A stretch of 9,482 bases of DNA from a virus (lineage: Duplodnaviria > Heunggongvirae > Uroviricota > Caudoviricetes). Location: IMG/VR virus record IMGVR_UViG_3300039377_000120. One strand, given 5' to 3'. The translations under genes and the position numbers were made by a program. The notes under the pieces are model-generated. The model worked only from the letters and a program-made list of their open reading frames with translations, made no database searches and was not told where the DNA came from. Below are positions 2,828-8,091 of this stretch, one piece after another. Position 1 is the stretch's first letter, and every line of letters begins with the position of its first letter.

Positions 2828-3005
2828 AAAAGGGAGTTGTAAACGCAACACAGGAAGAGGTGCCGCTTCAGGTTGCTGGGAATAAGCGCCGGGGTCTGTT
2901 AAATCATGCCAATACGCTAATCGAGCCAGATATTGAGTAGCCTGCAGTCCGTCATGGCGTAATCGTTTTGTGATATGCTGCACGCCGTATGCAAGGAGCA
3001 TGATT

Positions 3006-3027
3006 GCGCTCGACTGGCGAGCGCTCG
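3006..3027. repeat. Nested GC-rich palindromes (gcgctcg-actgg-cgagcgc, and cgagcgctcg) flanked by an 8-bp direct repeat atgattgc at 3000-3007 and 3044-3051
   Basis: Read directly from the sequence. 7-bp stem with 5-nt loop, no adjacent T-tract. Lies in non-coding DNA after the prophage gene cluster. Confidence 0.4.
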
Positions 3028-3292
3028 ATAGTGCTACTATTGAATGATTGCTAGTCTAGGCGGATTGTACTTAAGTAATATGACGGTTCAAGGCGTTTAA
3101 TCTGAAACCAGCCACATATTAGCCTTTTCAAACATTTCCTGAACACTCAGGCTTACCTGCTCTTTCTCGTGCTTGCGCTGGCATTTGTGTTGAGCGCCGG
3201 TGAATACTCTTACTCAACACTCCCAGAATTATATCTGTTGCATCAGGCAGACCATCAAAATTCTTTTGTCATAAACGAGTTCCACGAATAAT

Positions 3293-3311
3293 GTGCCCTA
3301 TGGTAGGGCAC
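3293..3311. repeat. Perfect 8-bp inverted repeat gtgcccta-tgg-tagggcac (hairpin or dimeric protein-binding site)
   Basis: Exact reverse complement arms with a 3-nt spacer. Sits 64 nt downstream of the stop of the AT-rich gene on the - strand; no U-tract on either strand, so not a canonical intrinsic terminator. Confidence 0.4.
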
Positions 3312-3374
3312 TATTGATATGAATGAGTAGCTAAAAAGATTTTTCGTTATGTATTAATGTATCTGTCACTTATT

Positions 3375-4169
3375 TTATAGTAAAGATGATATGCCAGCAA
3401 GAAATGGAGTAAATACTGTAATGTGTGCAGATACATTATTAATAAAGTCCTTATATGCTTCTTTAAAACAGCCGCTTTGGTGACTGGCTGCCAGTGCCTG
3501 TACATTATCTATAAGGTGTGATTCTGTCGCGCCATCAAAGTTTTTCGATTTTATTGCCTCAATCATTTCATTAAATATTGTGGGCTCATTATAATTTGTC
3601 GTAGTAGTTGCCGTAGCACCTGAAGAATGTATATTGATACTAGAACCGGAAATTCCACTGACATGAATATTAGCTTCTTGTTTCATAAGAGGTAAACCAT
3701 TCTCCATCTTGTATAGGTCACTATCTTGTAGCATCTGCAATGTGATACGTACTGCTGCTAATAGTTGTTCTTGCTTTTTGAATAAGGAACACATCTGTTC
3801 TACAGACCAAAGCTGAACTGCATTTTCTTCGCATGTTTTTTTAGCTATATTTGGCACTTTCGAATCATAATTACCATAAACCCAAGTGTCCTTGAATCTT
3901 TCGATAATAGCTGTCAACGTTGGAAATTTACTGAAATCACTATTAATGGATAGTAACTCATCAGACATATAAAGTGCCATATCTCTGCCTTCCGCATATA
4001 CTGCTTCCACTTTATTCCGTGTTGCAAATGGTATTCTTGAAATAAAACGAAAATCCTCTTCATTTTTTAAATGGACCCAGTCTTTATCAAAACGGCTAAA
4101 TTCGTACCCTATCGATAACAGTCTACTTATATATTGGGCTACTGATTCCAAATCTTTTCTTATGTCCAA
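3375..4169 (-). CDS. Hypothetical AT-rich orphan protein (about 264 aa; maximal ORF 271 aa to 4190); candidate prophage moron or anti-phage/abortive-infection gene
   Basis: Long uninterrupted - strand ORF; stop TAA at 3375-3377. The only plausible start is TTG at 4167-4169, preceded by AGGAG (4177-4181, 7-nt spacer); the TTG at 4190 has no Shine-Dalgarno. No in-frame ATG until about residue 70. GC content is visibly lower than the flanking sit and phage genes. Contains a Ser/Thr-rich low-complexity linker (HVSGISGSSINIHSSGATATTTT) and a hydrophobic C-terminus. Confidence 0.6.
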   Translation of the reverse strand: MDIRKDLESVAQYISRLLSIGYEFSRFDKDWVHLKNEEDFRFISRIPFATRNKVEAVYAEGRDMALYMSDELLSINSDFSKFPTLTAIIERFKDTWVYGNYDSKVPNIAKKTCEENAVQLWSVEQMCSLFKKQEQLLAAVRITLQMLQDSDLYKMENGLPLMKQEANIHVSGISGSSINIHSSGATATTTTNYNEPTIFNEMIEAIKSKNFDGATESHLIDNVQALAASHQSGCFKEAYKDFINNVSAHITVFTPFLAGISSLL

Positions 4170-4641
4170 AGTATTACTCCTGCTTGTCAACCGAATCTGT
4201 CGGTTTTCTTACAAATGGCTTGTCTTTAAAGTTCTGATTAAAAAGACGCTAACCAATACTTAATAATACATGAAAAAAAAGCGCATAAGCTGGCTTTTTT
4301 ATCAATCGGGAACTGCGGCCCCTTTGCGTATCCTTTTTTGTTTCTTCACCGTCTGGTCGGTGTTCTGCTGAGACTGCTAATTTCCTGTTTTTGCTAGTGC
4401 TGTCTTGGCACTGTCCATCGTGATTGGTGGACTGGTGAAGTTGAAACCGCAGACACGTCGTATGCAAGAACGTGCTGCGGCTGGCTGGTGAACTTCCGAT
4501 AGTGCGAGTATTGAATGATTTACAGCCGTTATTGATTTTACATATTTTTTGTATGAAAGGATTAGCGCCTCCTCCCAACGTCCGCCCATGACTTTCTGGA
4601 CTGCAGTGTACTAGCGGACAATGCTGCCCTCGGATGTTGTG

Positions 4642-5499
4642 CTAATTGGGGGATAACAGATCCTGTCTATGAGCGTTTCCCTTTGTGCGTGCGTTGAAAC
4701 TGATAACGGTAAACGTCATGATGAACACAACCGCGAATAAGACGACAATCGTCGGAGCTGGTGCGCTGTCGATAAAAAAGGACAGCCAAACACCAGTCAT
4801 TGAGACTATTACCGATATGCCAGTCGCCAGTAGGAGTGCAATATGAAAGCGTTGTGTCAGGAGTACCGCAATGGCGCCAGGCGCAATGAGCAGAGAAATG
4901 GAGAGAATGATACCTACTGCTTTCAGCGTCGCCACAATGGTCAGGGAAACCATGCACAGCAGCCCATAATGCAGCCATCGCGTATGCAAACCGCTTACCT
5001 GCGCCTGTTGATAATCAAAGCTGAACAGCAAAAAATCCCGCCATTTTACGCTAATAACAAGTGTAACCAGCCCGGCAATAATCATCGTCTGGATTATATC
5101 GCCGATGGTTACCCCGAGCATGTCGCCGAAAAGAATATGGTCAAGATGTATGTCTGGTTTGACTGCAATATACAAGATCAGACCTGCGGCAAACATGCCA
5201 GAAAAAACAATCCCCATCACTGTATCTTGCTTGATTCGGCTGTTGTCTTTCAGGTATCCCGTCGCCACCGCGCAGAATACTCCGGCGATAAATGCCCCTG
5301 TAGCCAGAGGTAACCCCAGAATCCAGGCAAGCACGATGCCAGGAAAAACCGCATGACTCATCGCGTCACCCATCAGTGCCCAACCTTTCAGGACCAGAAA
5401 GACCGACAGCAGCGCACAGGGTATGGAAACTACCAGTGAAATCAGCAGTGCGTGACTCATAAAGGTGAACTGCAGTGGCTCCAGTAATAATGCCATCAT
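4642..5499 (-). CDS. sitD: Mn2+/Fe2+ ABC transporter permease SitD (ABC-3 family)
   Basis: 285-aa polytopic membrane protein, paralogous to the upstream permease; start overlaps the sitC stop by 4 nt (ATGA); fourth gene of the binding-protein/ATPase/permease/permease operon. Confidence 0.88.
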   Translation of the reverse strand: MMALLLEPLQFTFMSHALLISLVVSIPCALLSVFLVLKGWALMGDAMSHAVFPGIVLAWILGLPLATGAFIAGVFCAVATGYLKDNSRIKQDTVMGIVFSGMFAAGLILYIAVKPDIHLDHILFGDMLGVTIGDIIQTMIIAGLVTLVISVKWRDFLLFSFDYQQAQVSGLHTRWLHYGLLCMVSLTIVATLKAVGIILSISLLIAPGAIAVLLTQRFHIALLLATGISVIVSMTGVWLSFFIDSAPAPTIVVLFAVVFIMTFTVISFNARTKGNAHRQDLLSPN

Positions 5500-6353
5500 G
5501 AGCGATCCTCCAGCGCTTTATGCGCACGCCGACGATTTGCCAAAAGCCCATGGGTGGGCGCAAATACAAATGCTAAAAGAAACAGCAGTGTCTGCGCCAC
5601 CACGATGATTCCACCTGTCGCGCCGTCCAGAAAGTAACTGACCCACGCGCCGAGGAAACTGGTTACACTGCCAATAGTTACAGCAATTATGAGCAGGCGG
5701 GGAAAACGATCGGTTAACAACCATGCTGTTGCACCGGGAGTCACCACCAGACAGATCACCAGAAAGGCACCAACCGTTTGCAGCGCCGCAACGGTCGAAA
5801 CCGACAGCAGGGTGAAGAAGAGGATTTTTAATCTGCCCGGATGCAATCCAATAGCACGGGCGTGATTCTCGTCGAAAAAGGTCACCATAAGATCTTTCCA
5901 TTTGAAAAAAAGCACGATGATCGAGAGAATGCCAATGATAGTGAGTTGCAGGATATCCGCCGGATCGATTGCCAGAATATTGCCCAGGACGATGGTCTGA
6001 ATGTTCACGGATGTCGGGTTCAATGACACCATAAACAGCCCCAGGCCAAAAAAGGAGGAGAAGATCAGGCCGATGATGGCATCTTCTTTTAAGCGAGTGC
6101 GTTGGTTAAGAAACAGCATGCTGCCCGCTGCCAGTCCGCCGGAAAAGAAGGCTCCCAGAGAAAACGGAAGCCCCAGCATATATGCCCCCGCAACACCCGG
6201 GACAATAGAGTGCGACAGCGCATCGCCAATCAGCGACCAGCCTTTTAGCATCAGATAGCATGACAGGAAAGCGCAGAGACCGCCGACCATCGCCGAGACC
6301 CACATCGCATTGAGCATATATTCATAGCTGAAGGGTTCCAGTAGCACGTTCAT
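5496..6353 (-). CDS. sitC: Mn2+/Fe2+ ABC transporter permease SitC (ABC-3 family)
   Basis: 285-aa hydrophobic protein with multiple transmembrane segments; start overlaps the sitB stop by 4 nt; same size and architecture as SitD. Confidence 0.88.
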
Positions 6354-7177
6354 CTTGCTTCCCTCTGCACCGCTGACGGTCGATGTGCCACAAAAGGGTG
6401 TTCATCGTCAGTAATAATGCTTTCTTCCGAGGCGTTAAGTGTGACATGGCGCAGTACGCCGCTAAAAGCCAGCTCCAGGTTCTCGGCTGTAAAAGTGGTG
6501 TCTGTCGGCCCGCTTGCCAGGACGGTGCCTTTGACCATGACCGTATAATCGCAAAATGTCGTGACTGAGCCGAGATTGTGCGTTGAGACAAGCATCGTCT
6601 TGCCTTCCGCGCGTAACTCCCTCAACAGGCTGATGATTTTCGCTTCGGTTTTCACATCAACGCCGGTAAAAGGTTCATCCAGCAGGATCACATCACCCTG
6701 CTGTGCAATCGCTCTCGCCAGAAAGACGCGTTTCTTTTGTCCACCGGAAAGCTCGCCGATTTGTCGATGGCGAAAATCCACCATATCGACACGTTCCAGC
6801 GCATCGGTGACAATCTGACGATCCCTCTTTTTGGCTATACGCAACATACCCATGTGCCCATAGCGGCCCATCATCACCACATCTTCCACTAGTACAGGAA
6901 ATGACCAGTCAACCTCTTCTGACTGAGGGACGTAGGCAACCAGGTTTTTCTGTAGCGCCTGTCGCGTGGGAATACCCAGAACAGATATCTTTCCGCTGGT
7001 CAGACGCACAAATCCCATAATCGCTTTAAACAACGTCGATTTTCCGGAACCGTTTACCCCAACCAGAGCGGCAATAGATCCACTTGGTACTGTGAAGGAT
7101 GCATCGCGCAGTGCTGTGTGCCCGTTACGCCAGGTGACAGTAACATCATTAACGACAATGCCCGCAGATTGCATCAT
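6350..7177 (-). CDS. sitB: Mn2+/Fe2+ ABC transporter ATP-binding protein SitB
   Basis: Walker A (GVNGSGKST), ABC signature (LSGGQKKR) and Walker B (ILLDEP) are all present in the translation; start ATG overlaps the sitA stop by 1 nt (TAATG). Confidence 0.9.
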
Positions 7178-8091
7178 TATTTCTCCCTTTTCCCGGCTTT
7201 AATTCCCTGTACCAGCGTACTGGTAGTAACCTTCAGAAGGTCGATATACGTAGGTACCGGGCCGTTTTCTGTGCTCAGGGAATCGACATAGAGTACACCG
7301 CCGTAGTGCGCGCCGGTTTCACGCGCAACCTGACGCGCTGGTTTATCGGAAATCGTACTCTCGCTAAAGACTGCCGGGATATGATTTTTCTTCACCATAT
7401 CAACAACCTTACGTACCTGCTGCGGCGTGCCTTGTTGATCGGCATTAATCGGCCACAGATAAAGCTCTTTTAGCCCCAAATCGCGTGCGAGATAAGAAAA
7501 AGCCCCTTCACTGGTGACCATCCATCGCTGATTCTCAGGGAGTTCAGCAATCTGCTTACGCAGGGGGGCAAGGGTTTGGGTAATCTTGGCTTTATAAGTA
7601 TCGGCATTACGTTGGTAGGTTTGTGCATTTGCCGGATCGTATTTTATCAACGCATCACGAATATTATCGACGTAAATCAGAGCATTATCTGGCGACATCC
7701 AGGCATGGGGGTTAGGTTTGCCCTCATAGGGGCCTTCAGTGATCCCTACTGGCGTCACACCCGAAGAGACAATTACTTCTGGAACCCCATTAAGATGCTG
7801 GTAAAAGCGTTGGAACCACAATTCCAGATTCATACCATTGGCGAGAATCAGTTGTGCCTCCTGCGCACGTTTAATATCGCCAGGGGTAGGCTGATACTCA
7901 TGAATTTCTGCACCGGGCTTGGTTATGGATGAGACTTCTGCAGCATCTCCAGCCACGTTTTTGGCCATATCTGCGATGATGGTAAATGTTGTAATGACCT
8001 TGAATTTTTCAGTTGCACTCGCCTGAAATGCGATCGAGCAGGTGAGGGCGAGGCACCCCAAGAGCATGGTTACTTTTTTTATTGAGTACAT
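7177..8091 (-). CDS. sitA: Periplasmic Mn2+/Fe2+-binding protein SitA (TroA/ZnuA-like cluster 9 binding protein)
   Basis: N-terminal signal peptide ([18 protein letters not shown]); metal-ligand-like His motifs ([17 protein letters not shown]) typical of TroA-like binding proteins; first gene of the operon. Start could alternatively be the in-frame ATG at 8067. Confidence 0.88.

Follow-up and report, generated by a model that had tools for sequence, protein, structure and literature searches.

The stretch of DNA analysed here (hereafter the window; 9,482 nucleotides, IMG/VR virus record IMGVR_UViG_3300039377_000120) comes from an Escherichia coli chromosome, from the region of a Rac-type prophage at ttcA (intR, xisR, ralR, recT … tail-fibre genes). 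The tail-fibre genes are followed by a 97-amino-acid phage gene, a remnant of a DinI-family gene, a gene for a protein of 264 amino acids, sitDCBA and uspF. The 264-amino-acid protein, which RefSeq names 'hypothetical protein' (WP_016234320.1 / WP_000354607.1), is the subject of this study. Its open reading frame (ORF) is a real protein-coding gene under purifying selection, members of its family travel on phages, satellites, integrative and conjugative elements (ICEs) and defence islands, with no partner gene conserved among them, and its N-terminal domain (N-domain) is a conserved module that has been joined in evolution to many unrelated C-terminal parts. Taken together, the comparisons presented below lend good support to the view that it is a horizontally acquired prophage cargo gene and a candidate for an anti-phage function.

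The gene and its variable cassette

The original prediction, made from the sequence alone, described a minus-strand ORF at 3375-4190, opposite to the tail genes and markedly AT-rich, as a candidate anti-phage or moron gene. Strand and frame are borne out by RefSeq and by the homologues, both of which give a product of 264 amino acids. The longest form of the ORF (271 amino acids from a TTG at 4190) was set aside for the form starting with the TTG at 4169, on which the RefSeq annotation and the homologue starts agree: all 37 aligned homologues begin at the residue encoded there (M-D/E-I/V-R-K-D). As this shared start codon is a TTG preceded by AGGAG, the earlier remark on a TTG start with a good Shine-Dalgarno sequence was correct for the 264-amino-acid form. 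The foreign base composition is likewise confirmed, with a GC content of 35.5% in the gene (27.5% at third codon positions) compared to 46.5% in the rest of the window, 50.4% in the sit operon and 43.6% in the tail-gene block. At eight loci in different hosts, the gene has 33-41% GC and its flanks 42-56%, and a nonsynonymous divergence (pN) of 0.15-0.31 contrasts with a saturated synonymous divergence (pS) of at least 0.77. Saturated pS with low pN, and AT-richness in every host, indicate a protein under selection that is transferred horizontally and retains a base composition of its own.

Hairpins flank the gene on both sides (z = -3.6 upstream and -5.3 downstream; Table 1), which makes the separate transcription unit that had been proposed plausible. 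The upstream hairpin likely insulates the gene from sit read-through, and the gene's own promoter would probably lie between this hairpin and the start codon. An Rfam scan of the window gave no match.

Of 5,426 complete E. coli genomes, only 105 have the gene, in every case as a single copy with at least 99% identity, a pattern that indicates a single lineage; DNA from the phage or sit flanks is common to thousands of genomes. In Nissle 1917, and likewise in sequence type 131 (ST131), avian pathogenic E. coli (APEC) and other sit-positive strains, 38 bp take the place of 1,763 bp between the regions corresponding to 2522-2858 and 4622-5100. The segment in between is thus a presence/absence cassette, and the window copy of the gene lies within this 1.76-kb indel between the tail-fibre genes and sitD.

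The description of the flanks as non-coding did not hold. A frameshifted pseudogene of the DinI family lies 89 bp past the stop codon, and the 450 bp upstream hold what is left of a sequence conserved at lambdoid prophage ends. This 240-bp fragment (4302-4541) shares 88% identity with the DNA that follows an intact DinI-like gene at the end of a different prophage, and several lambdoid prophages have it at their right ends. The fragment holds one of two diverged copies of a direct repeat, both of which match positions 6149-6216 of a locus (L018) downstream of an intact DinI-like gene. That the cassette is bracketed by such DinI-downstream repeats suggests acquisition by recombination between prophage-end modules, and the repeats and the 240-bp fragment look like a recombination scar or an exchange site for prophage-end cargo. 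The conserved sequences flanking DinI at prophage ends would then have been the substrates of this exchange.

One could argue that the gene is a decaying or silent passenger without current function in E. coli, kept because its lineage is young. Its restriction to about 2% of E. coli genomes, with an identity of no less than 99%, suggests one clonal lineage, its AT-richness makes silencing by H-NS likely, its DinI neighbour is already a pseudogene and its TTG start is weak. We consider this explanation very unlikely, as the frame is intact in 104 of the 105 carrier genomes, purifying selection across genera is strong, length and motifs are conserved, the Shine-Dalgarno sequence is good and hairpins bracket the gene.

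Two small conserved phage genes at 2534-2827 and 1528-1809 (phrog_1443 and phrog_1361; both on the plus strand, function unassigned) lie on either side of the tail-fibre gene; the one for 97 amino acids marks where conserved DNA borders the variable cassette on the left. The operon for the iron/manganese transporter sitABCD (4642-8091) is located within the Rac-type prophage region, between the tail-fibre genes and uspF. In strain AF14 (L001), the insertion element IS1 further truncates the prophage, and another IS1 interrupts ompN. A homologue of window positions ~4448-4550 in E. coli FELIX_MS724 (L017, 5994-6107) is annotated as a 37-amino-acid 'capsid protein', a call that looks spurious; it is located between moron-like genes (Mn catalase, ferritin-like, general stress protein) and ybhB/bio.

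Table 1 Positions of the gene, its encoded domains and the surrounding features in the window
Feature	Position	Strand	Basis or remark
Protein-coding gene, 264 amino acids and stop	3375..4169	(-)	ORF list, RefSeq annotation, homologue starts, pN/pS
N-terminal helical domain, swappable module (residues 1-160)	3690..4169	(-)	
Ser/Thr/Asn-rich linker (residues 161-194)	3588..3689	(-)	Low pLDDT, short predicted beta strands
C-terminal three-helix module (residues 195-264)	3378..3587	(-)	Ends in conserved hydrophobic helix
Shine-Dalgarno AGGAG, 7-nt spacer to TTG start	4177..4181	(-)	Direct sequence reading
Terminator-like hairpin, A-tract and U8 tract	4271..4304	(-)	~100 nt upstream of start; RNA fold -10.4 kcal/mol, z = -3.55
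GC-rich 8-bp stem-loop	3293..3311	(-)	64 nt past stop; terminator-like scan; -13.3 kcal/mol, z = -5.3
Variable 1,763-bp segment (DinI remnant, gene and its upstream region)	2859..4621	(.)	Genome comparison
Frameshifted DinI-family pseudogene	3097..3285	(-)	RefSeq in two genomes, sequence reading
Direct repeat copy A, 69 nt	2981..3049	(+)	Sequence found downstream of DinI-like genes
Direct repeat copy B	4454..4520	(+)	Inside prophage-end fragment 4302-4541

Architecture of the protein and distribution of its family

AlphaFold2 with the family alignment models the N-domain as helical, with a predicted local distance difference test (pLDDT) score above 90. It is followed by the polar linker (…NIHVSGISGSSINIHSSGATATTTTNY…), in which pLDDT falls below 50 at residues 163-194 and S182 is invariant in the homologue alignment. 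Modelled alone, the C-terminal module (hereafter the tail) forms a three-helix bundle with pLDDT above 90 (helices 197-208, 213-232 and 235-262). The pLDDT profile and the divergence of relatives at about residue 160 uphold the prediction of a Ser/Thr linker that splits the protein into two modules. The hydrophobic C-terminal stretch that had been noticed is also present (ITVFTPFLAGISSLL; Kyte-Doolittle 1.8 over 15 residues), and the tail ends in the conserved hydrophobic helix AHITVFTPFLAGISSLL. Near-invariant residues of the N-domain are R4, D6, W31, E38, D39, Y58, G61, M126, Y153, and E156; those invariant in the tail are F199, Y239, F242, and H249. A polar, beta-like stretch similar to the linker stands ahead of the tails in the relatives P0171 and P0113 and in proteins labelled AbiTii.

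The N-domain had no match in Pfam, PHROGs, NCBIfam, or PDB sequences. Structure prediction with fold comparison, recommended as a check together with the original prediction, yielded no specific fold match for the N-domain and no PDB fold match for the tail. Sequence and profile searches for relatives of solved structure returned only SflA (E = 0.16) and designed helical proteins, and the assignments to PF10119 (E = 0.03) and NCBIfam XopF1 (E = 0.11) were discarded as noise. The N-domain had further been thought to carry a HEPN-type motif, R-x6-H (RFDKDWVH). Position R25 is S, R, H, Y, K, or N across homologues and only H33 is conserved (~90%). Because its Arg is not conserved, the string is not a HEPN motif; with this Arg variable among the 37 homologues and no HEPN family match, HEPN membership was rejected. 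An RNase toxin of the HEPN type would suit a helical-bundle N-domain with a conserved H33, and AbiTii-type N-domains are fused to HEPN in other proteins (Anantharaman et al., PMC3710099), but refutation at the motif level leaves this identity highly improbable.

The gene is not the orphan it was first taken for. A homologue search of 5.8 billion proteins returned 85 close relatives, most of them 261-267 amino acids long and 53-75% identical, across Gammaproteobacteria (Celerinatantimonas, Stutzerimonas, Enterobacter, Pseudomonas, Pseudoalteromonas, Vibrio, Serratia, Edwardsiella, Klebsiella, and Marinomonas), and 1,368 relatives were recovered at E <= 1e-3 when 1.84 billion representatives were searched exhaustively with a profile. 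Lambdoid prophages in E. coli and Enterobacter carry homologues, as do five IMG/VR viral contigs. In Pseudomonas veronii the homologue belongs to a P4-like satellite with AlpA, a Toprim/DUF927 primase, Beta_protein and P4 cII, and in Serratia liquefaciens to a P4-like satellite with an alpha-type primase, Ash, AlpA, Ogr/Delta, and AIPR. The Klebsiella homologue lies in an ICE, directly after traC, and an E. coli islet harbours a homologue beside a 613-amino-acid reverse transcriptase and a gene with a SMEK domain. In a P2-like Aeromonas phage (L033), the homologue is inserted between the gpA-type replication block and the portal/terminase block. The gpA-gpQ interval of P2 holds old/tin and was defined as a defence hotspot by Rousset et al. 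(PMC9122126). The location of the Aeromonas phage homologue in this interval, together with the P4-like satellites, indicates that the family occupies defined variable hotspots. A check of conservation in other prophage hotspots had been suggested; homologues were found in established defence hotspots and in cargo slots of mobile elements. In a 2026 study, six of eight randomly chosen P4 hotspot loci without assigned function protected against phages (PMC13586616), and none of the named P4-hotspot systems of that study fits the 264-amino-acid protein by description.

No neighbour is conserved in nine homologue contexts, where the neighbouring genes differ each time, and the contexts compared contain no conserved small antitoxin-like neighbour of the kind expected for a type II toxin-antitoxin system. 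The Enterobacter mori prophage (L012, 1356-4247) also encodes a 598-amino-acid DUF7380/EMARD_N protein and, beside the holin, a second protein of 264 amino acids with a hydrophobic N-terminal segment. The latter was considered as a paralogue and rejected on comparison as unrelated; both may be products of further cargo genes.

The range of hosts also bears on whether the gene could be a moron for virulence or host interaction, delivered to or acting on eukaryotic cells. This would fit its position beside the virulence-associated transporter sitABCD in extra-intestinal isolates and the insignificant XopF1 match given above. We hold it to be extremely unlikely, given that bacteria from sea and soil (Vibrio, Marinomonas, Celerinatantimonas, Pseudomonas veronii) have homologues, that none of the contexts shows a signal peptide or a link to a secretion system, and that the sit-positive pathogens Nissle 1917, ST131 and APEC do not have the gene.

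For a survey of architectures, the best 150 of the 1,368 relatives were combined with earlier matches to 245 proteins matching the N-domain profile. In these proteins the domain is almost always N-terminal, and divergence at about residue 160 leads into C-terminal extensions (0-579 amino acids) of at least 35 kinds that are unrelated to one another. Pfam domains on the extensions comprise TIR_2/TIR, CAP12/Pycsar TIR, SEFIR, CHAT, PNP_UDP_1, a phage tail-collar domain, and LRV repeats, and transmembrane segments are predicted directly after the N-domain in about 20 of 50 multi-domain relatives. PADLOC assigned 11 of 50 relatives to PDC-S54 (E = 1e-74), six to PDC-S66 (2e-42), two to PDC-S35 (4e-74), three to the validated bSEFIR (3e-51) and two to AbiTi (9e-7), the AbiTi matches probably being within the same polypeptide. 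The window protein and 36 close homologues have no match to the PDC-S54, PDC-S66, PDC-S35, or bSEFIR models, and a search of a word-indexed database with the N-domain profile added no further annotated relatives. Residues 166-345 of one relative (P0225) form a C-terminal module that also occurs in COR-domain, small-GTPase, and TPR proteins encoded on plasmids of Photobacterium, Spirosoma and Bacillus thuringiensis (tblastn E down to 2e-20). The module looks like an effector-like domain that lacks annotation and is reused across architectures.

Stand-alone N-domain genes were found in two Persephonella genomes (L027, 5001-5549; L028, 5001-5564). They encode 182-187 amino acids and overlap by 13 nucleotides with the start of a gene for a 1,021-amino-acid protein that combines a UvrD helicase with a PD-(D/E)xK nuclease. 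This pair shows that the N-domain can also work with a separately encoded partner, and shows only that.

These fusions matter for a further alternative, namely that the protein serves its mobile element in some other way, as an addiction or stabilisation toxin, an envelope superinfection-exclusion factor, or a counter-defence or regulatory factor. Homologues are always on mobile elements or islets, the C-terminal helix is hydrophobic and a DinI-like gene adjoins; the DinI family modulates RecA/SOS, and the tail-distal region of lambdoid prophages carries morons of many kinds. However, no antitoxin-like neighbour is conserved in the nine contexts, and the DinI neighbour, here a pseudogene, does not occur in the other contexts. 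In addition, the N-domain fusions to TIR, CHAT, PNP, and SEFIR and the matches to defence-candidate models form a pattern seen in immune proteins, not in factors for anti-defence or exclusion. Such a service to the element is therefore unlikely in our judgement.

Proposed mode of action

We propose, with somewhat more confidence than doubt, that the 264-amino-acid protein is a self-contained, two-module anti-phage protein of the abortive-infection type, which a Rac-type lambdoid prophage carries at its tail-fibre-distal end as exchangeable cargo. The N-domain would be the sensing or regulatory part, which either recognises a phage cue or is kept inactive until the cell is infected, and the variable C-terminal part would be the effector. 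In the window protein, the effector would consist of the Ser/Thr linker and a non-enzymatic three-helix tail with its conserved hydrophobic terminal helix. Our best guess is that infection triggers self-association and/or membrane insertion by the tail, which would lead to growth arrest. The role in anti-phage defence or as moron cargo that was originally assigned is hence retained, on the strength of the homologue contexts, the immune-effector fusions and the PADLOC matches of relatives, while its orphan, HEPN and flank arguments fall away.

Several observations weigh against this proposal. The window protein matches no validated or candidate defence model except, weakly, PDC-M14B, and its tail has no recognisable enzymatic or pore-forming fold. 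The hydrophobic stretch spans only ~15-17 residues and is modelled within a soluble three-helix bundle; an effector that acts by membrane insertion or oligomerisation is speculative because of this short stretch, the soluble-bundle model and the lack of a structural analogue. Homologues in Vibrio and Celerinatantimonas reside in small chromosomal islets without hallmarks of mobile elements, the gene had no match in the INPHARED phage or PLSDB plasmid collections, and the Persephonella pair has a housekeeping-looking neighbourhood (purL, COX1, ResB). Finally, we infer the sensor role of the N-domain from architecture alone, and its residues R4, D6, E38, D39, Y58, and R62 could equally be catalytic.

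The last point can be extended to a reversed polarity, in which the N-domain is an unrecognised all-alpha catalytic effector and the C-terminal parts target, regulate, or sense. The invariant charged and polar cluster (R4, D6, R16, K35, N36, E38, D39, E55, Y58, and R62), the existence of stand-alone N-domain genes and the translational coupling to a helicase-nuclease in Persephonella would all accord with this arrangement, which we regard as quite unlikely.

If the proposed anti-phage function is true, clinical E. coli natively possess a compact anti-phage system that consists of one gene (264 amino acids). The N-domain would be a sensing domain new to Pfam, PHROGs, and NCBIfam that stands ahead of at least 35 modules and is useful to find effectors by association. 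It would further allow asking which phage cue the N-domain recognises, and could explain the long-uncharacterised AbiT of lactococci. The cassette illustrates cargo swapping at lambdoid prophage ends, next to the virulence-associated transporter sitABCD. Should the prediction fail, a well-defined and strongly conserved family of mobile-element proteins is still described.

Comparison with known systems

Two homologues, A0A376LPF7 (E. coli, in one 90% cluster with the window protein) and that of Marinomonas, bear the UniProt label 'AbiTii domain-containing'. Pfam AbiTii (2025 copy) matched neither the protein, the isolated N-domain nor 37+10 relatives, and NCBIfam and RefSeq/PGAP likewise gave no match; the tail region, or else an older model, is the probable source of the label. 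The relatives P0171 and P0186 combine the family's N-domain with a tail of 125-127 amino acids homologous to the AbiTii-labelled tail (blastp E = 1e-22 to 7e-15, 34-37% identity). AbiTii-labelled proteins of 293 amino acids (e.g., WP_158656318.1) occur on Aeromonas, Pseudomonas, and Klebsiella plasmids and are named 'AbiTii domain-containing' or 'Abort lactococcal phage infection AbiTii' in NCBI/UniRef. Their N-terminal domain differs (…WISSELNGY…), and the family's N-domain profile gave E > 0.08 on five of them; with the missing Pfam match, membership of the AbiTii family via the N-domain was rejected. Such a 293-amino-acid protein is encoded on Aeromonas pKPC-038c (L025, 2937-3818) and on 63 other plasmids, which are carbapenemase-associated, derive from Aeromonas, Pseudomonas, Klebsiella, and Enterobacter and have at most four matching places each.

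The alignment of the window tail with the AbiTii-type tail is weak but in register (hhalign 46-47%, E = 2e-4, 65-70 columns; blastp of residues 169-232 to 187-250 with 30% identity and E = 3e-5 in a 5-sequence database), which makes a remote relationship possible. Judged from these alignments, homology to the AbiTii-type tail is clear only for P0171 and P0186. A domain-swap network is nevertheless firm: two unrelated N-domains, that of the present family and that of AbiTii, stand ahead of the same tail, and each also stands ahead of enzymatic effectors. The fusion of one N-domain to alternative effectors (at least 35 C-terminal classes) is thus an AbiTii-like trait, an analogous architecture and not proof of homology.

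The CFT073 protein c2405 has been cited as a fusion of AbiTii to HEPN (PMC3710099). Its family profile showed no relation to the window family (hhalign 0.2%), and it is a poor control because it matches neither Pfam AbiTii nor an AbiTii-labelled protein. The protein (390 amino acids, HhH C-terminus, annotated 'ComEA family DNA-binding protein') is encoded in the tcpC island (L020, 10764-16745), adjoined by a second TIR-domain gene and a macro-domain gene, which looks like a cluster of NAD-related conflict genes.

The protein and lactococcal AbiT/AbiTii are alike in having an N-domain of about 160-180 amino acids with a conserved acidic residue, a polar beta-like linker and a helical tail, and in both the AbiTii-labelled proteins and the window family the tail ends in a hydrophobic helix (…PYLTALL compared with …PFLAGISSLL). 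They differ in that the N-terminal domains are unrelated in sequence and in that the Lactococcus system needs two genes, whereas the window protein is the product of a single gene without an AbiTi-like partner; no adjacent AbiTi gene was found in the contexts compared. A split form, with AbiTii as sensor and AbiTi as the 127-amino-acid tail, fits the numbers for lactococcal AbiT. These observations invite a broader, tentative reading, which we think possible though doubtful as a whole: the N-domain may be a widespread, so far undescribed phage-sensing module, functionally interchangeable with the AbiTii N-domain, that drives fused or separate effectors (TIR, SEFIR, CHAT, PNP, membrane or helicase-nuclease). 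The 264-amino-acid protein would then be a minimal form whose tail is a new type of effector, non-enzymatic, that kills or arrests the cell by self-assembly or membrane insertion, and AbiT would be a split version.

PDC-M14 is the sole system whose model in the defence library is touched by the window protein. The recommended PADLOC check of the protein brought only this weak signal, for PDC-M14B (E = 0.0017 for the full protein, 2.5e-4 for the tail; 13 of 28 family tails match, best 2.6e-5), with tail residues 163-251 aligned to positions 149-242 of the 267-position profile. Protein length is similar and the tails align, but the PDC-M14 candidate comprises several genes, the alignment does not extend to the N-terminal halves and the scores are weak. 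A gene for a PDC-M14A partner is not conserved next to the family, and the neighbours in the window are the DinI pseudogene and sitD. A literature search on the protein accessions, the PDC systems and PF18864 found nothing.

Modular TIR/CHAT/PNP systems with EAD or Death-like adaptors provide a further parallel. Those adaptors pair with a second protein that carries the same domain, usually a STAND NTPase (PMC7159879, PMC8195603). Neither such a partner or NTPase nor an EAD Pfam match was seen here, and what the systems have in common is one small helical N-domain combined with the same effector repertoire.

The C-terminal module of the 264-amino-acid subfamily differs from those of PDC-S54, PDC-S66, PDC-S35, and bSEFIR, of which the PDC systems are candidates only; the likeness is that relatives with the same N-domain match these models strongly, and that these are single-gene systems with an effector-type C-terminus. 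The cargo of P2 (old/tin), of P4-like satellites (psu-int and gop-beta-cII) and of lambdoid prophages (morons) is defined by location and not by family, and the window protein is unrelated to Old, Tin, Gop/Beta/CII or the systems validated in the studies of these locations. It shares with this cargo the same niche, the AT-richness, the exchange as a cassette and the conserved phage flanks.

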